A stretch of DNA of 64,000 nucleotides from a virus (taxonomy: Duplodnaviria; Heunggongvirae; Uroviricota; Caudoviricetes): the IMG/VR virus record IMGVR_UViG_2875713109_000001; one strand, 5' to 3'. Positions 2,517 through 53,205 of this stretch are shown one piece after another. The translations under genes were made by a program, and so were the position numbers. The notes below the pieces were generated by a model. The model was not told the DNA's origin. It did no database searches and saw only the letters and a program-made list of their open reading frames with translations. Numbering within the stretch: position 1 is the stretch's first letter; each line of letters begins with the position of its first letter.

Positions 2517-3056
2517 CTACCACCAACTGCTAGCTTTCTTCTCTCTAGCTTTTCCTTCGCTTTGCAGTAAATCTTTACTTCCTGTAGAAATATTTCTATT
2601 TGCATCAGCCTCAGACTGAATTACATCTGTCTTAGCTGCTCTCTCCTTCAACTCCTGCTCTATAAAATCGTTTTCTCGCTGGACACGAGCCGCTTTTGCT
2701 TGCAGTTCGAGTTTCATGCTTTCGAGTTGCAGCTTGCGAAGCTCATCCTCATAAGCTTGATCTCGCTTCTTGTCATTTGCTAGCTCGGCTTCTCGTTTCG
2801 CTCTACGTTCATTTTCTGCAGCAACACGCTGTTTTTCGCGTGCAGCAGCGGCAGATGCTGCTTTTTCTCTTCTAATACGTTCAGCTTGTGCTTGTTGGCG
2901 AATAAGTTCTTTTCTGGCATCCTCAGCTTGCTGCTCTTTAGCTCGCCCTTCATTTTCCGCTTGAGCAATAGCAGCAATTTGACTTTGCAACGAGTTAGCC
3001 AAGGCAGTGCCTACACTAAACGTAGAAAAGATTAGAAATAAAATAATTTTATTCAT
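2517..3056 (-). CDS. secreted coiled-coil protein (signal peptide, A/E/K/R/Q-rich repeats)
   Basis: N-terminal hydrophobic signal MNKIILFLIFSTFSVGTALA followed by low-complexity charged helical repeats; located next to immI where P1 carries superimmunity (sim) genes. Confidence 0.5.
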   Translation of the reverse strand: MNKIILFLIFSTFSVGTALANSLQSQIAAIAQAENEGRAKEQQAEDARKELIRQQAQAERIRREKAASAAAAREKQRVAAENERRAKREAELANDKKRDQAYEDELRKLQLESMKLELQAKAARVQRENDFIEQELKERAAKTDVIQSEADANRNISTGSKDLLQSEGKAREKKASSWW

Positions 3057-3059
3057 AAA

Positions 3060-3581
3060 TTATTTCTTTTCTGGACAAGTAGCATTTGGCTGAATTCGAG
3101 TTTCATTATCTTTAGTTGAAATAAGCACAGCAAGCCCCGTTGTAAACTGGCATGCTTTACCAACTTGAGTTGAAGTGAACACCTTAGTTCCTTCTTTATA
3201 AGTCAGTGAAACACCTTCAACAATTGTTTTATCACTAACCAAAGAACCAGCCGCTGCACCAAGAGCCGCACCACCAGTACCGCCAGCTACAGCACCCAGT
3301 GTCGATGTGCCTTTAACATTATAACCGGCAACGCCCCCAGCAACAGCTCCCAGTACCGCACCAAATGTCTGTGCCGCTTCTTTATTAGCTTTATTATCAA
3401 CTTTCACTTTAGCTGGAAGCACAGAGATAATATTGACTGTCTTTGTTTCCTGCTTCGAATTCAATTGAGCGGTATCATAAACATCGGCAGCATAATCAGC
3501 ACCGCTAGATTGACACCCAGAAAGAAGAATTGCAGATACAACAAGAGCGCATAAAGTATACTTTTTAGACATAAGAATCAT
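3060..3581 (-). CDS. lipoprotein with glycine-zipper segment
   Basis: Lipobox LLSGC after hydrophobic N-terminus (alternative ATG at 3572); G/A-rich GxxxG repeats (GAVLGAVAGGVAG...). Confidence 0.55.
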   Translation of the reverse strand: MILMSKKYTLCALVVSAILLSGCQSSGADYAADVYDTAQLNSKQETKTVNIISVLPAKVKVDNKANKEAAQTFGAVLGAVAGGVAGYNVKGTSTLGAVAGGTGGAALGAAAGSLVSDKTIVEGVSLTYKEGTKVFTSTQVGKACQFTTGLAVLISTKDNETRIQPNATCPEKK

Positions 3582-3862: not shown

Positions 3863-3879
3863 CCTGCTCTAATAAATTT
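3863..3879 (+). promoter_or_regulatory. C1 repressor operator-like site upstream of immI
   Basis: cctgctctaataaattt, 15/17 match to ATTGCTCTAATAAATTT motif that recurs at more than 15 places in the window. Confidence 0.6.
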
Positions 3880-4066
3880 GTATTTTTAAGTCGCGAATGC
3901 TATCTTTTCGCATCATATTGACCTTTTAATCGTTCAGGCTTATAGTTTCGCCGTCGTAGCAAATTCTGCGACCAGGTTTGACAGCCTGAATGATTGTGCG
4001 GACAACCGCAGATTTCCGATATTGCGGTATTTTTGTGTCCGTTAAACCGCGTTACGCCCAAATTAT

Positions 4067-4143
4067 GGTGGGGCGTGATGGGGAGGCTTCGGCCTGCTGG
4101 TTTCACAATCGCCAGTCTGTCAACCCTGTCACGTCCTGCCACC
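4067..4143 (+). ncRNA. c4: c4-like antisense regulatory RNA (about 77 nt)
   Basis: Structured segment closed by ggtgg/ccacc with UUCG hairpin; internal cacaatc and caacc are complementary to gattgtg and ggttg found both upstream (3972-3999) and at the icd RBS (4146-4183), the a/b target layout expected for c4. Confidence 0.45.
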
Positions 4144-4193
4144 TGTTTGACAGCGGGTAGCAGGTTGTTAAACCTGATTGTGAGGCCGTAACT

Positions 4194-4415
4194 ATGGTTA
4201 ATGCCAATCCTTGCGCACGCCCAGAATTCATCTGGCGTTTCTATTCCTGTAAAAAACACCACTATCACTTCGTTATCGCAGCAACTGAAGACGAAGCACG
4301 CTCTCAATTGCCTGATGGCCCCTGCATTTTTACTGCCCGTTTTTCAACTAACTCGCGCAATTCACTTAGTTACTGGAGCCTCCCCTTCTCTGCCGACGTT
4401 CAGGGGGGTTTATGA
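4194..4415 (+). CDS. icd: Icd-like small protein (73 aa)
   Basis: 73-aa ORF directly upstream of and overlapping (ATGA) the antirepressor gene; paralog at 50988-51209. Confidence 0.65.
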   Translation: MVNANPCARPEFIWRFYSCKKHHYHFVIAATEDEARSQLPDGPCIFTARFSTNSRNSLSYWSLPFSADVQGGL

Positions 4416-24899: not shown

Positions 24900-24975
24900 G
24901 ATGGTGTAGCTCAGCGGTTAGAGCGGTTGACTGTTAATCAACGGGTCGATGGTTCAAATCCATCCACCATCGCCA
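24900..24975 (+). tRNA. tRNA-Asn (anticodon GUU)
   Basis: Cloverleaf folded by hand: acceptor gatggtg/caccatc, anticodon stem gttga/tcaac with loop ctGTTaa, T-arm gatgg-ttcaaat-ccatc, 3' CCA encoded. Confidence 0.85.
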
Positions 24976-24977
24976 AT

Positions 24978-25053
24978 GCCGGTTTAGCTCAGTTGGTAGA
25001 GCGCCTGCCTTGTAAGCAGGATGTCAGCGGTTCGAGTCCGTTAATCGGCACCA
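24978..25053 (+). tRNA. tRNA-Thr (anticodon UGU)
   Basis: Acceptor gccggtt/aatcggc, D-arm gctcagttggtagagc, anticodon stem cctgc/gcagg loop ctTGTaa, T-loop ttcgagt, CCA encoded. Confidence 0.85.
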
Positions 25054-26857: not shown

Positions 26858-26933
26858 GGCCCTTTAGCTCAGTGGTTAGAGCTGGCGACTCATAATCGCA
26901 CGGTCACCGGTTCAAGTCCGGTAGGGGCCACCA
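26858..26933 (+). tRNA. tRNA with CAU anticodon, Ile2 (ileX)-type
   Basis: Near-identical over most positions to recalled E. coli tRNA-Ile2; acceptor ggccctt/aggggcc, anticodon loop ctCATaa, CCA encoded. Confidence 0.8.
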
Positions 26934-47950: not shown

Positions 47951-49144
47951 GTGACCTGGGACGATCACAAGAAGAATTTTGCTCGCCTGGCGCGAGATGG
48001 TGGTTACACCATCGCACAGTATGCCGCCGAGTTTAATCTTAACCCTAATACCGCACGTCGTTATCTCCGTGCCTTCAAAGAAGACACCAGGACAGCGGAC
48101 AGCCGCAAGCCAAATAAGCCAGTCAGGAAGCCACTAAAAAGCATGATCATTGATCACTCTAATGATCAACATTCCGGTGATCACATTGCGGCTGAAATAG
48201 CAGAAAAACAAAGGGTTAATGCCATTGTCAGTGTCGCAGTCGAGAATGCGAAGCGCCAAAATAAGCGCATAAATGATCGTTCAGATGATCATGACGTGAT
48301 CACCCGCGCCCACCGGACCTTACGTGATCGCCTGGAACGCGACACCCTGGATGATGATGGTGAACGCTTTGAATTCGAAGCTGGCGATTACCTGATAGAT
48401 AACGTTGAAGCGCGGAAGGCCGCGCGCGCTATGTTGCGTCGGTCCGGGGCCGATGTTCTGGAAACCACTCTTCTTGAAAAGTCTCTTTCTCATCTCCTTA
48501 TGCTGGAGAACGCCAGGGATACGTGTATTCGCCTGGTGCAGGAAATGCGCGATCAGCAAAAAGCCGATGATGAAGGTACTCCGCCTGAATACCGTATCGC
48601 GAGCATGCTAAACAGCTGTTCCGCGCAGATAAGCAGTCTGATCAACACCATTTACAGCATCCGGAATAACTATCGAAAAGAAAGCCGGGAGGCGGAAAAG
48701 CACGCTTTGTCTATGGGGCAAGCTGGCATTGTTAAGCTGGCATACGAACGAAAGCGTGAAAATAACTGGTCAGTGCTGGAAGCAGCTGAATTTATCGAGG
48801 CGCATGGCGGGAAAGTGCCGCCCCTGATGCTGGAGCAAATCAAAGCCGATCTGCGTGCTCCTAAGACCAATACCGATGATGAGGAAAGGCAAACTGCCGT
48901 CGGTGGTCCTTCTCTTGAAGATCTGGACAAAGTTGCGCGAGAACGGGCCGCCAACCGCCGCGCCGATGCCGCATTGTGGATTGAGCAGCGTAGGGAAGAA
49001 ATCGCCGATATCGTTGATACAGGCGGTTATGGAGATGTTGATACTGAAGGTGTATCAAACGACCCATGGCTGGAACAAGACCTGGACGAAGACGAGGAGG
49101 AAGACGAAGAAGTTACCCGCAAGCTATACGGGGATGATGATTAA
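47951..49144 (+). CDS. pacA: PacA terminase small subunit (pac recognition)
   Basis: 397 aa as in P1 PacA; contains the pac hexanucleotide clusters; GTG start with AAAGGAAG SD. Confidence 0.85.
48144..48303. other. pac packaging site
   Basis: Four TGATCA hexamers (48144, 48151, 48163, 48178) and three TGATC(A/G) (48274, 48286, 48298) about 100 bp apart, the 4+3 Dam-site layout of P1 pac. Confidence 0.8.
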
Positions 49145-50628
49145 TGGCCAGAAGTTGCGTAACGGATCCACGTTGGCGCGAGCTGGTGGCGCTATATCGT
49201 TATGACTGGATTGCGGCCGCTGATGTTTTGTTCGGCAAAACACCTACCTGGCAGCAGGATCTGATTATTGAGTCTGTGCAGGAACAGGGTAGCAAGACAT
49301 CTGTTTCGTCTGGTCACGGTACCGGGAAATCAGACATGACTTCTATCATGATCATGTTGTTCATAATCATGTATCCCGGTGCCCGAGCCATTATCGTTGC
49401 GAACAAAATTCAGCAGGTAATGACCGGTATATTCAAGTACATCAAGATAAACTGGGCTACTGCCACCAGCCGTTTTCCATGGCTTGCTGATTATTTTGTT
49501 CTGACAGAAACCGCTTTCTATGAGGTTACTGGTAAAGGTGTATGGACTGTAGTACCGAAGGGCTTTCGTCTGGGAAGTGAAGAAGCTCTCGCCGGTGAAC
49601 ACGCAGATCATCTTCTGTATATTATCGATGAAGCCTCCGGTGTCAGTGATAGAGCTTTCGGTATCATCACCGGTGCTCTTACCGGACAGGATAACCGCAT
49701 CTTATTGCTGTCACAGCCTACACGCCCAAGCGGCTATTTCTACGATACACACCATAAACTGGCCAAGCGTCCTGGTAACCCTGATGGCGTTTATACGGCG
49801 ATCACGCTTAACAGTGAGGAATCACCGCTGGTAACGCCAGCATTTATCAAAATGAAGCTGGCGGAGTACGGCGGGCGTGATAACCCTATGTACATGATTA
49901 AGGTACGCGGGCTATTCCCTAAATCACAGGATGGCTTCCTTCTTGGACGTGATGAGGTTGAACGTGCAACGCGGCGGAAAGTCAAGATTGCCAAAGGATG
50001 GGGCTGGCTTGCATGTGTGGACGTTGCTGGTGGTACGGGAAGGGATAAGTCCGTTATCAATATCATGATGGTGTCCGGCCAGAGAAATAAACGCCGTGTA
50101 ATCAACTATCGAATGCTGGAATACACAGACGTTACAGAAACGCAGCTTGCCGCCAAAATTTTCGCAGAATGTAATCCTGAGCGATTCCCAAATATCACCA
50201 TAGCGATAGACGGCGATGGTCTGGGTAAAGCAACGGCGGATCTGATGTACGAGTATTATGGTATTACCGTACAGCGTATACGCTGGGGTAAAAAGATGCA
50301 TAGCCGTGAAGATAAGAGCCTGTACTTTGATAAACGTGCTTATGCCAACGTTCAAGCCGCAGAGGCCGTAAAATCTGGTCGTATGAGACTGGATAAGGGT
50401 AATGAAACTATTGAGGAAGCGTCGAAAATCCCTGTAGGGATTAACTCCGCAGGTCAATGGAAGGTGATGAGTAAGGAAGATATGAAGAAAAAACTCAACC
50501 TGCACTCACCGGACCATTGGGATACATATTGTTTCGCTATGTTGGCGAACTATGTTCCCCAAGATGAAGTGCTTAGCGTCGAAGACGAAGCGCAGGTTGA
50601 TGAAGCTCTGGCATGGCTTAATGAGTAA
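49144..50628 (+). CDS. pacB: PacB terminase large subunit
   Basis: 494 aa, ATG overlapping pacA stop; Walker A-like [10 protein letters not shown]. Confidence 0.85.
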
Positions 50629-50631
50629 AAA

Positions 50632-50648
50632 CTTGCTCTAATAAATTG
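50632..50648 (+). promoter_or_regulatory. C1 operator-like site upstream of second immI-like module
   Basis: cttgctctaataaattg. Confidence 0.6.
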
Positions 50649-50851
50649 TGTTTTTTGACTGCCGATGTTACATTGAACCTGACCTCTTGCGCCTTGAGGC
50701 ATTTTCGGTTTATGCTTATCAGGCACCTCATTAAAACGGGTGCCGGGATTGGAACCCCGGATAATGCAAAAGGCGACACAGACGCCAAAAGCGTCTTTTT
50801 TTGTGTCATGCCATCGCACAGCCATACGTAGCACATAGCTCCGAGATCAAT

Positions 50852-50926
50852 GGTAGTGCTGGCTGGGCTGCCGAAAGGCAGGCCGGTTCCCTTTTGCGCC
50901 GGTAGTTCCAACCCAGTCAGTGCTAC
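50852..50926 (+). ncRNA. second c4-like structured RNA (tentative)
   Basis: About 75 nt closed by ggtag/ctacc with GAAA-loop hairpin ctgcc-gaaa-ggcag; same position relative to the icd-like gene as 4067-4143. Confidence 0.3.
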
Positions 50927-50987
50927 CGCCATTGAGATTGGAACCTCACGCGGTAGCTCCTTAAGTTAGCAAAAGGAGGCTGCCATT

Positions 50988-51209
50988 GTGGCTACTATCC
51001 CTACCCCTGCTCATCCTGAATTTATCTGGCGCTTTTACTCCTGCCAAAAACGTCACTATCACTTCGTTATTGCACCGACAGAAGATGAGGCACGTTCTCA
51101 GCTTCCTGACGCCCCATGTATTTTCTCTGCCCGTTTTTCCACTGATTCACGCAATTCTCTCAGTTACTGGTGCCTCCCTGTTAACGCTTCTGCTCTGGAG
51201 GGGCTATGA
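50988..51209 (+). CDS. Icd-like small protein, second copy
   Basis: 73 aa, about 70% identical to 4194-4415 product; GTG start 8 nt after AAAAGGAGG. Confidence 0.6.
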   Translation: MATIPTPAHPEFIWRFYSCQKRHYHFVIAPTEDEARSQLPDAPCIFSARFSTDSRNSLSYWCLPVNASALEGL

Positions 51210-52321
51210 GAACATCATTAGTCACCCGTAAAGAAATGATCGAGGCAATTGAACAGCACACTGCCTGTATCAGTACCAGGGATATACCTGGCGTTATTGC
51301 CAACTACTTCATGATCACCAAACAACTTTACCGGAGAAAGGACAAAAACGCGGTTCACCGCATTCTGCTAACCGATATCCGTGAATACCTGCTCGAACAG
51401 GGTCATCTGAATTACGCAACCGTCGCAGCCGAAGCACGCAAGGAGGCACACAGAATGAAAGCAACTAACGTTAAATCAGAAAAAACTCATGCACCTTCAG
51501 TTCAGGAATCGGAGCTGGTGGTTGTTCAGAATCAGTCTGATGAAATTCCCGTTCTGGAATGGCTGGGAGTGCGTGTAGTGACAACTAAGATCCTTGCTAA
51601 GGGGTATGGGACAGATGCGGATAACATCAAGAAGAACTTTTCCCGTAATGCTGAACGTTTTTGTGAAGGCAAGCATTTCTATAAAGTTATTGGAGATGAT
51701 TTGAACAATTTGCGGGTGACTTTAAGTAACTCACAAAATCCTATCTCTCCTAAAGCCCGCTCACTCATCCTCTGGACGGAACGCGGCGCAGCCCGCCACG
51801 CTAAAATGATCGAAACCGATCAGGCATGGGCATTCTTTGAAAAACTGGAAGACAGCTACTTCCGACAAAAAGAACAGCAACCGATCGCAATCCCCCAGAC
51901 GCTTCCAGAAGCTCTGCGCCTTGCTGCCGAACTGGCTGAACAAAAGCAACTTCTGGAACAGAAAGCCCATCAGCTAAATCAGCAGCTGGTGGCCGCAGCC
52001 CCCAAAGTCGATTTTGCCGACCGGGTATCAGTGGCTAAGGGGATCCTGATTGGGAATTTTGCAAAGGTCGTTGGACTTAAACAAAATGCGCTGTTTGCCT
52101 GGTTACGGGAGAACGGCATTCTGATAGCGTCCGGCGGCCGTAAAAATGTACCGTTCCAGCAGTACATAAACGCCGGATATTTCACAGTGAAAGAAGTGGT
52201 GCTGGATGATGAAGAGGGCTACCAGATACGGCTGACGCCCCAATTAACGGGGAAAGGCCAACAGTGGTTGACGCGTAAACTGCTCGATGCTGGCTTGTTA
52301 AAACCGGTGGCGGCTGAATAA
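51206..52321 (+). CDS. antirepressor-like protein, second copy (ORF6N-like middle domain, KilA-C C-terminus)
   Basis: 371 aa; N- and C-terminal regions homologous to Ant, different central domain; ATG overlaps icd-like stop. Confidence 0.7.
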   Translation: MRTSLVTRKEMIEAIEQHTACISTRDIPGVIANYFMITKQLYRRKDKNAVHRILLTDIREYLLEQGHLNYATVAAEARKEAHRMKATNVKSEKTHAPSVQESELVVVQNQSDEIPVLEWLGVRVVTTKILAKGYGTDADNIKKNFSRNAERFCEGKHFYKVIGDDLNNLRVTLSNSQNPISPKARSLILWTERGAARHAKMIETDQAWAFFEKLEDSYFRQKEQQPIAIPQTLPEALRLAAELAEQKQLLEQKAHQLNQQLVAAAPKVDFADRVSVAKGILIGNFAKVVGLKQNALFAWLRENGILIASGGRKNVPFQQYINAGYFTVKEVVLDDEEGYQIRLTPQLTGKGQQWLTRKLLDAGLLKPVAAE

Positions 52322-52353: not shown

Positions 52354-53205
52354 TTATTGCGCGCTTTCGGGGTTGTCGTTTACTGGCTGCCCCTTCTTGG
52401 TTTTACGGCTGCGCGTAACTGATGCGGCTGACTTAACCTTTTTCTCTTCGCGAGTGATGGCAATTTGTTTTTTTACATTTTCAATATCTGCCAGGCGATA
52501 TATTTTTGCTTGTGGCCAGCGGTCGCAGATGATCGGTTCTATGGAGTCATAAAGGCTAAATTTTGCTTTTTCGAATTCACCGTTGATGATGATTCCATCA
52601 CGGAGAGTTTCATCGCAGATAAACACGCCACACAGCGGTACATGGTAACTAACTGATTTACCATCATTGTAGTTAGGGCTACTGGAGATGTAGTGGACGC
52701 GCAGCATTGTTTCGCTAAAGCCGTGTACACGCATACGGAATTTTTCATCCTCCGGGTACTGCCTCATTAGCTCTTTTGTTGCTTCCAGGTTCTCTATGTA
52801 TTTCGCACTGTGCTCATTGATCCCCGCGCTTTTTTGGATGCGAATGTCCTTATCAATCAGATGAATAATGCGGCCAGCGGTCATGTTGACGCTGTTCACA
52901 GCTTCTGTCTGATAAGTTGTAACCTTGCGCACACCGCGAAGGATGTTAGGCACTGGATATAAAATAGTCTTTGGGATATTGAGGTCTGGGTACTGTTCCA
53001 GTTCCCGCGCCATTAAAGTCCATTTATCAATTTCAGCCTGAATGCTGTCAGTTTCTTTGAACGGTAGAACGACAACCGGGCGTACAGGACGACCGTCGCT
53101 GGCTGTATCAACGTGTTGGGCGCGTGCAACAGCTTTTTTTAGAAAGAGATCCCTGAAGCTGACGAACTCCTGGTACAGTTGTTCGCCGTAGACATAATTT
53201 ATCAT
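52354..53205 (-). CDS. c1: C1 master repressor
   Basis: 283 aa as in P1 C1; GGAGGAGG SD; genome carries many copies of its operator motif. Confidence 0.9.
   Translation of the reverse strand: MINYVYGEQLYQEFVSFRDLFLKKAVARAQHVDTASDGRPVRPVVVLPFKETDSIQAEIDKWTLMARELEQYPDLNIPKTILYPVPNILRGVRKVTTYQTEAVNSVNMTAGRIIHLIDKDIRIQKSAGINEHSAKYIENLEATKELMRQYPEDEKFRMRVHGFSETMLRVHYISSSPNYNDGKSVSYHVPLCGVFICDETLRDGIIINGEFEKAKFSLYDSIEPIICDRWPQAKIYRLADIENVKKQIAITREEKKVKSAASVTRSRKTKKGQPVNDNPESAQ

Follow-up and report, generated by a model that had tools for sequence, protein, structure and literature searches.

A c4 antisense RNA with two recognition words, each matched at two target sites, in the immI operon of a P1/P7-like phage-plasmid

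Within the 64,000-nt stretch of Caudoviricetes DNA analysed here (the window; IMG/VR record IMGVR_UViG_2875713109_000001), the list of open reading frames places icd (73 aa), ant (344 aa), kilA (266 aa) and repL (281 aa) in this order 3' of a c4 RNA, which is the order of the immI/lytic-replicon region of a P1-like phage-plasmid. The roughly 900 bases around c4 are 95-98% identical to the Escherichia phages JL22, RCS47 and P7 and to Salmonella phage SJ46, and several further records named P1 fall within the same range. The reference P1 genome aligns at 97% identity, starting only at window position 3865; to the left of this point the window carries two P7-type lipoprotein genes where P1 has its sim genes. 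By its sequence, this is the core regulatory segment of an immI operon from a phage-plasmid of the P1/P7 type (Table 1). The start of ant overlaps the stop of icd in an ATGA at 4412-4415, and the ant product carries a Pfam ANT/KilAC domain (E = 1.3e-30). For the Icd and C1 proteins no Pfam family was found, so that their identity comes from the annotation of P1, P7 and RCS47. In several related records c4 itself is left without annotation or is marked as a protein.

Table 1. Positions in the window of the regulatory elements and genes of the two c4-icd-ant modules.
Feature	Position	Strand	Basis or remark
C1 operator Op(c4)/Op51, before the immI operon	3863-3879	+	Transferred from the P7 protein_bind feature by alignment
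Promoter P2c4 (former P51a), overlapping the operator	3877-3906	+	P1 GenBank features via alignment A1
Promoter P1c4 (former P51b), TTGACC-17-TATAGT	3918-3946	+	Consensus scan, 10/12 matches; coincides with P1 annotation
Rfam c4-a1b1 motif (RF03163), leader hairpins	3940-3992	+	55.2 bits, cut-off 46.7
a1 target TTGACAG	3978-3984	+	7-nt perfect complement of 4117-4123; equals the P1 a1 misc_binding feature
b1 target GATTGTG	3992-3998	+	7-nt complement of 4104-4110; corresponds to the P1 b1 feature
Terminator-like hairpin ACCGCA...TGCGGT with U-run, between leader and c4	4005-4034	+	Predicted fold
c4 antisense RNA, 77 nt	4067-4143	+	Rfam C4; P7 and P1 c4 features; fold; stems across alleles
b' word UUCACAAUC, loop of the second hairpin; core CACAATC at 4104-4110	4102-4110	+	Unpaired probability 0.93-0.99; covaries with b1 and b2
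a' word CUGUCAA (ctgtcaa), single-stranded junction	4117-4123	+	Unpaired probability 0.92-1.00; covaries with a1 and a2
a2 target TTGACAG, 4 nt past the c4 3' end	4147-4153	+	7-nt complement of a'; P1 a2 feature
b2 target GATTGTGA, overlapping the icd Shine-Dalgarno	4176-4183	+	8-nt complement; P1 b2 feature
icd, 73 aa, translated first in the operon	4194-4415	+	ORF list; annotated icd in P7, P1 and JL22
ant1/ant2 antirepressor, 344 aa	4412-5446	+	ORF list; annotated ant1 in P7 and P1
Second module, operator core	50634-50647		
Second module, IsrK-type leader	50723-50801		IsrK model passed, 62.4 bits
Second module, C4	50846-50933		Rfam C4, 76.7 bits
Second module, icd-like ORF, GTG start, 73 aa	50988-51209		
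Second module, ant-like gene, 371 aa	51206-52321		ORF6N and ANT domains

The core of the C1 operator, TGCTCTAATAAATT, lies at 3865-3878, and sites matching it with at most one mismatch occur seven times in the window (five of them exact) against 0.05 expected. The P2c4 stretch is invariant among the window, P1 and P7, and the second promoter, P1c4, implies a start at about 3953, the position at which the match to the Rfam IsrK model begins. In the predicted fold the leader forms hairpins at 3953-3972 and 3973-3988, with a1 in the loop of the second and b1 next to it. When the IsrK model (RF01394) was applied to the leader at 3953-4034 it returned 43 bits, which is below its gathering score of 50, and within this sub-threshold match the hairpin at 4005-4034 aligns to the terminator of the model. 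A consensus terminator scan listed only a weak site inside icd and passed over 4005-4034 because the loop of this hairpin is longer than 8 nt, and so the terminator-like element takes its support from the predicted fold together with the sub-threshold IsrK alignment; from these we infer that the hairpin may act as a terminator.

A sequence-only reading of this DNA had placed a 77-nt c4 RNA at 4067-4143, and this placement holds. The Rfam C4 model (RF01695) matches over its full length (1-87) at 4061-4146 on the + strand with 68.4 bits, against a curated gathering score of 45 bits, and after alignment 4067-4143 coincides exactly with the c4 misc_RNA features of P7 (AF503408) and P1 (AF234172), which puts c4 here and not elsewhere in the interval. 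Folding agrees with this identity, the 77 nt reaching -42 kcal/mol (z = -4.6, with no shuffled sequence folding as well) in an architecture of a long closing stem and two hairpins. The only parts of c4 that remain unpaired with a probability of at least 0.92 are the UUCG tetraloop at 4088-4091, the stretches 4102-4110 and 4117-4123, and the 3' ACC, so that both recognition words are accessible. All stems are identical between the window and P1, and outside the words the c4 of P7 differs from that of the window at a single position, 4127 in the closing stem (C in P7, U in the window and in P1), where P7 forms a G-C pair and the window a G-U pair. The flanks and the 3' CCACC are likewise identical to those of P1 and P7, and across representatives of 12 allele combinations the stems are 100% paired. 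A match to mir-1231 (19.6 bits against a cut-off of 80, E = 0.58) was set aside as noise.

The sequence-only reading had also paired cacaatc with gattgtg at the ribosome-binding region of icd and with a similar site upstream, and this half of it is correct: cacaatc lies at 4104-4110, and gattgtg occurs at 4176-4182 and at 3992-3998, both on the + strand. At b2 the duplex, 8 bp long (4103-4110 with 4176-4183), reaches into the Shine-Dalgarno GAGG at 4182-4185, ahead of the icd ATG at 4194. The second word had been taken to be caacc, with ggttg as its partner; by complementarity and covariation the true second word is ctgtcaa, which pairs with ttgacag at 4147-4153 and 3978-3984, both within the intervals that had originally been marked. 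This makes four target words in all, and the 8-mer at b2 and the 7-mer of the 'a' contact are the longest complementarities to c4 in either flank. The order of pairing is antiparallel, the targets reading 5'-a...b-3' and c4 reading 5'-b'...a'-3'. Singly, the 7-mers are not enriched in the window (GATTGTG 13 times against 11.2 expected, TTGACAG 8 times against 9.0), whereas 0.04 copies of the composite TTGACAG-N(3-33)-GATTGTG would be expected in 64 kb and three are present: the two + strand targets and c4 itself on the - strand. It is the ordered composite alone that is significant, and neither 7-mer is informative by itself. The earlier call, which had been made from complementarity, was right in position, strand, length, antiparallel order and two-target layout and wrong in one word, and the published logic of c4 immunity on which it drew, one pair of sites at the icd ribosome-binding region and a duplicate upstream, is the arrangement seen here. 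Taken by itself, the downstream target region shows no significant fold (z = -0.9), and opening a2 has a high predicted cost of 6.4 kcal/mol, which leaves the a'/a2 contact energetically weak on paper. A conserved CAGG...CCTG hairpin at 4162-4175 was considered as an explanation of ggttg and was dropped on the same z score.

Conservation was examined by a scan of IMG/VR for a 21-mer of the invariant c4 stem, which returned 119 complete loci, including the window and the records of P7, P1, D6 and SJ46. These loci hold 13 combinations of a' and b', drawn from three 'a' alleles (two common, one rare) and from seven or more 'b' alleles, and the words covary three ways, between c4 and each of its two sets of sites: a1 matches a' in 119/119 loci, and a2, b1 and b2 match their words in 118/119 each, with all four sites perfect in 118 of the 119. 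The lone exception, locus L065, is an alignment shift in which the words still match (TTAGTCG with CGACUAA) and the 'b' duplex is longer, with a bulge. In an alignment of 12 rows (A2), each row standing for one allele combination, pairing is complete (100%) in both intermolecular helices. Compensatory changes fall at 2/7 'a' pairs and 6/8 'b' pairs for the downstream targets and at 2/7 'a' pairs and 6/7 'b' pairs for the upstream ones, counts that refer to alleles and not to independent events because the rows were picked by allele. Sliding the partners by 1-3 columns lowers the paired cells to 32-53% and leaves at most one compensatory pair. In the divergent locus L107 the a'/a2 and b'/b2 contacts are still matched. 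The complementarity is thus conserved by way of compensatory changes, as an earlier check on the c4 call had asked, and we regard this pattern as strong natural evidence that selection maintains the contacts of c4 with both the downstream and the upstream sites.

The same genome holds a second complete module, located between pacB (49144-50628) and c1 (52354-53205, - strand). Its words are a' GUUCCAA and b' CCUUUUGC, which bear no relation to the words of the first module. Each has a site in the leader (50749-50755 and 50766-50773) and another past C4 (50938-50944 and 50969-50976), the last of which lies over the Shine-Dalgarno. Among 72 loci of this type there are 2 x 2 alleles, which covary; only a1 is mismatched, in 2 of the 72. 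The module is present in RCS47, where the annotation covers its ant gene alone, in JL22 and 673R5, and partly in D6. A published account of D6-like plasmids likewise mentions a second c4-icd region (PMC6799933). Judged by its words and sites, the second module repeats the two-word, two-target logic independently.

Against this background three other readings of the locus can be weighed. The pairing as originally proposed, caacc (4121-4125) with ggttg (4163-4167) beside cacaatc with gattgtg, is perfectly complementary and runs in the correct antiparallel order, and in P7-type alleles, where caacc becomes uaacc, a G-U pair with ggttg would still be possible. Yet a 5-nt match between c4 and this flank is at chance level (shuffle mean 2.9 per flank, P(at least one) 0.90), and C4124 and C4125 are held in the closing stem with an unpaired probability of at most 0.01, at an opening cost of 6.2 kcal/mol. 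With two of its five c4 bases in that stem, the duplex has a predicted net energy of +8.7 kcal/mol. This pairing moreover has no compensatory changes and loses 3/5 of its pairs in L107. In the upstream interval, 3972-3999, the sites are a1 (ttgacag) and b1, and the counterpart of ggttg is ggttt; the P1 record gives a2 as TTGACAG. We consider caacc/ggttg very unlikely to be the second contact. A protein repressor encoded by an overlapping reading frame, at 3990-4160 (56 aa) or 3994-4191 (65 aa), deserves practically no credence. Both frames exist, and older or automatic annotation calls c4 a CDS or 'transcriptional regulator C4' (X15639, RCS47); the variation, however, is base-pair covariation among three separate sites with stems that stay 100% paired, which is the signature of an RNA and not of a coding frame, the structure-aware Rfam models score high, and mutagenesis identified c4 as an RNA (Citron & Schuster 1990, summarised in PMC12197685).

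A further reading concerns the upstream sites, which could be a functionless duplicate, a2 and b2 alone being of consequence. The P1 GenBank record gives a1 and b1 a role that is only 'putative', and the 2 of 72 second-module loci in which a1 is mismatched to a' while a2 matches suggest that a mismatch at a1 is tolerated. In the first module, on the other hand, a1 matches a' in every locus and b1 matches b' in all but one across the 13 allele combinations, and the upstream sites show compensatory changes at 8/14 pairs, where a neutral duplicate would not follow every allele switch. The leader is in addition a separate curated Rfam motif, and the homologous leader RNA of Gifsy-1, IsrK, is functional and complementary to a processed downstream RNA (PMC4825925). 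We therefore hold a functionless duplicate to be unlikely, and the covariation argues that a1 and b1 are functional.

The reading that we favour, with a probability of about 0.93 for the model as a whole, is that c4 silences icd-ant through the a'/a2 and b'/b2 contacts in the immI operon, and nothing in the sequence contradicts it. Transcription would proceed from the promoter controlled by the C1 operator and from the second promoter, TTGACC-17-TATAGT, and the transcript would carry, in order, the leader with a1 and b1, c4, a2 and b2, icd, and ant1/2. By analogy with P1 and P7, the 77-nt c4 would be cut out of this transcript by RNase P, exposing b' (CACAAUC) and a' (CUGUCAA). In both prototypes c4 is reportedly processed by RNase P and measures about 77 nt after 3' trimming (Hartmann et al. 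1995). Acting in trans, c4 would then pair through its two words with a2 at 4147-4153 and b2 at 4176-4183, and as the b2 duplex covers the icd Shine-Dalgarno, icd would be left untranslated. If the locus behaves as in P1 and P7, translation of ant would be coupled to that of icd through the ATGA overlap, and untranslated icd RNA would be liable to premature (Rho-dependent) termination; with the coupling lost and transcription ended early, no antirepressor would be made and the C1 repressor would remain active. In the leader, a1 and b1 would offer the a' and b' words a second pair of partners; for these sites a decoy or feedback role appears plausible given the covariation and the example of Gifsy-1, where IsrK is complementary to STnc1160 and acts in trans.

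In P1 and P7, c4 blocks the translation of icd and ant is thereby kept off (Citron & Schuster 1990/1992, Biere et al. 1992, Heinrich et al. 1995). Published descriptions make c4 a trans-acting antisense RNA of 77 nt that targets the ant mRNA in its ribosome-binding region, and attribute to it the heteroimmunity of the two phages (PMC12197685, PMC8198154). The c4-icd-ant system is in this sense already known, and the exact sequence found here is widespread in public plasmids. The window shares with the immI region of P1 and P7 the operator and promoters, the a1-b1 leader, the 77-nt c4, a2, b2 over the icd Shine-Dalgarno, icd and ant1/2; it differs from both in having neither prototype's pair of words, and from P1 also in the genes to the left of the operator. 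Similar to our locus, the Salmonella Gifsy-1 region IsrK/STnc1160/orf45/anrP (RF01394; PMC4825925) begins with a short leader RNA that has a terminator; behind it come a stable processed RNA, complementary to that leader, and a small ORF translationally coupled to the antirepressor (PMC4825925). There, however, IsrK, which is complementary to the processed downstream RNA STnc1160, acts in trans as an activator, and the downstream RNA is not framed as a repressor of the c4 type (PMC4825925); the leader of our first module, moreover, stays below the cut-off of the IsrK model. The CI RNA of satellite phage P4 (seqA/seqC), likened here by description, is also processed from the leader of its own operon and has complements on both sides (PMC4825925), but it acts by ending the transcription of replication genes prematurely and not by covering a ribosome-binding site before an antirepressor. 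In phage P22, too, a small antisense RNA, sar, prevents translation of an antirepressor gene from being initiated (PMC12197685).

What sets the window apart from P1 and P7 is its combination of words. A three-way alignment shows that at all three copies (c4, the upstream sites and the downstream sites) it carries the 'a' word of P1 together with the 'b' word of P7. In P7, a' is CTGCTAA, both 'a' sites read TTAGCAG and b' is CACAATC; in P1, b' is CACTAAC, both 'b' sites read GTTAGTG and a' is CTGTCAA. The window consequently departs from the P1 type at 2/7 positions of the 'b' word in each of c4, b1 and b2, with 'a' identical, and from the P7 type at 2/7 positions of the 'a' word in each of c4, a1 and a2, with 'b' identical. 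On oligonucleotides representing the a2 and b2 sites, the predicted energy of the window c4 is -15.9 kcal/mol with its own sites, -10.9 kcal/mol with those of P1 (the 'a' contact intact) and -11.4 kcal/mol with those of P7 (the 'b' contact intact), so that with either prototype one contact is fully matched at about -11 against about -16 kcal/mol on its own targets; with the words of the second module it is close to 0 kcal/mol. From these site-oligo energies the window is predicted to represent a third immI type that has one contact in common with each prototype, and we infer that its immI specificity is probably neither that of P1 nor that of P7.

This combination of the P1 'a' and the P7 'b' is common, being found in 12 of the 119 loci, and the 248-nt regulatory region of the window recurs with 100% identity in at least 40 PLSDB plasmids of the 575 that carry the region; JL22 is 99.6% identical over the same 248 nt. 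Each of the 10 combinations that the common 'a' and 'b' alleles can form is represented, with its triplets matched. In the DNA the words follow the order a1-b1-b'-a'-a2-b2, separated by gaps of only 6-22 nt, so that any re-assortment would need several crossovers within these gaps, and over some 290 nt the window changes from P1-like to P7-like sequence or back no fewer than seven times. The re-assortment of matched triplets could reflect an unrecognised conversion process. A literature search on heteroimmunity types among P1-like elements found no papers. Based on the covariation, with phenotypes that are predicted, we tentatively suggest that P1-like phage-plasmids may use a combinatorial two-word address system, possible but for us short of probable, in which there would be many immI groups besides the classical two of P1 and P7, the window would have a third specificity, and the second module would add a further independent lock.

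Taken together, the analysis verifies a textbook regulator down to single bases and sets right one of its recognition words, which matters for annotation; the remaining interest lies in the combinatorial pattern of alleles. If that pattern is read as above, immI specificity in nature would be a mix-and-match of two short words, and the combinations of words would predict which P1-like plasmids silence each other's antirepressor. This may bear on the co-residence of phage-plasmids and on superinfection among them, some of which carry resistance genes (RCS47, SJ46).

We found that, besides module 1 (the c4-icd-ant operon), the window holds a second complete c4-type module at 50634-52321 (+), flanked by pacB and c1 and composed of a C1 operator core, an IsrK-type leader (62.4 bits), a C4 RNA (76.7 bits), an icd-like ORF with a GTG start codon and an ant-like gene with ORF6N and ANT domains. 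It uses the recognition words a' GUUCCAA and b' CCUUUUGC, neither of which is related to a module 1 word, and each finds matching sites in two pairs (see table). RCS47, JL22 and 673R5 also carry this second module, its RNA and icd-like ORF being mostly without annotation there. Across the whole window the C1 operator core TGCTCTAATAAATT has 7 matches at no more than one mismatch, 5 of them exact, against 0.05 expected; each c4 module is preceded by one, as is kilA, and another lies beyond c1. At the module 1 leader the IsrK model is sub-threshold (43 bits), and a terminator-like hairpin with a U-run, positionally homologous to the terminator of IsrK, separates the leader from c4. As a terminator, this hairpin would yield a short leader RNA with the c4 target words.

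Features located in the window
Feature	Position	Strand
Pair of genes for lipoproteins or membrane proteins (179 and 173 aa), left of operator	2517-3581	-
C1 operator core matches	3865, 5527, 20697, 24219, 40221, 50634	+
C1 operator core match	53765	-
ORF overlapping c4, 135 aa	3900-4307	-
ORF overlapping c4, 56 aa	3990-4160	+
ORF overlapping c4, 65 aa	3994-4191	+
Terminator-like hairpin and U-run, between a1/b1 leader and c4	4005-4034	+
tRNA gene (Rfam tRNA model)	24900-24972	+
tRNA gene (Rfam tRNA model)	24978-25050	+
tRNA gene (Rfam tRNA model)	26858-26930	+
pacB	49144-50628	
Second-module a'/b' sites, first pair	50749-50755 and 50766-50773	
Second-module a'/b' sites, second pair	50938-50944 and 50969-50976	
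c1	52354-53205	-

The reference P1 genome is similar to the window only from position 3865 onward. P7 too has such a pair of lipoprotein or membrane-protein genes left of the operator (upf50.0 and upf50.5), whereas P1 carries simABC at that position. Genes for tRNAs are present in P1-family phages, and the three found here all clear the threshold of the Rfam tRNA model, at 64.7-74.5 bits. The c4 region is still annotated as a CDS or 'transcriptional regulator C4' in the related records X15639 and RCS47 and as a hypothetical protein in others; together with the ORFs that overlap c4, these protein labels are an annotation trap.

In module 1 the words run a1-b1-b'-a'-a2-b2, only 6-22 nt apart. 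When the IMG/VR module 1 loci L005-L124 were compared with window 3953-4200, all 10 combinations of the 2 common 'a' and 5 common 'b' alleles were found, with a1/a2 and b1/b2 matched in every one. The divergent relative L065 (IMGVR_UViG_3300010935_000281) adds a third word to the 'a' set, CGACUAA, matched by TTAGTCG. Its 'b' interaction is longer, at about 11 nt with a bulge, and covers a GGAG Shine-Dalgarno, which shows that 'b' contacts can differ in length. Among loci of the module 2 type (IMG/VR L125-L194), a1 is mismatched to a' while a2 matches in 2/72, and this suggests that in such loci a mismatch is better tolerated at the upstream site than at the downstream one.
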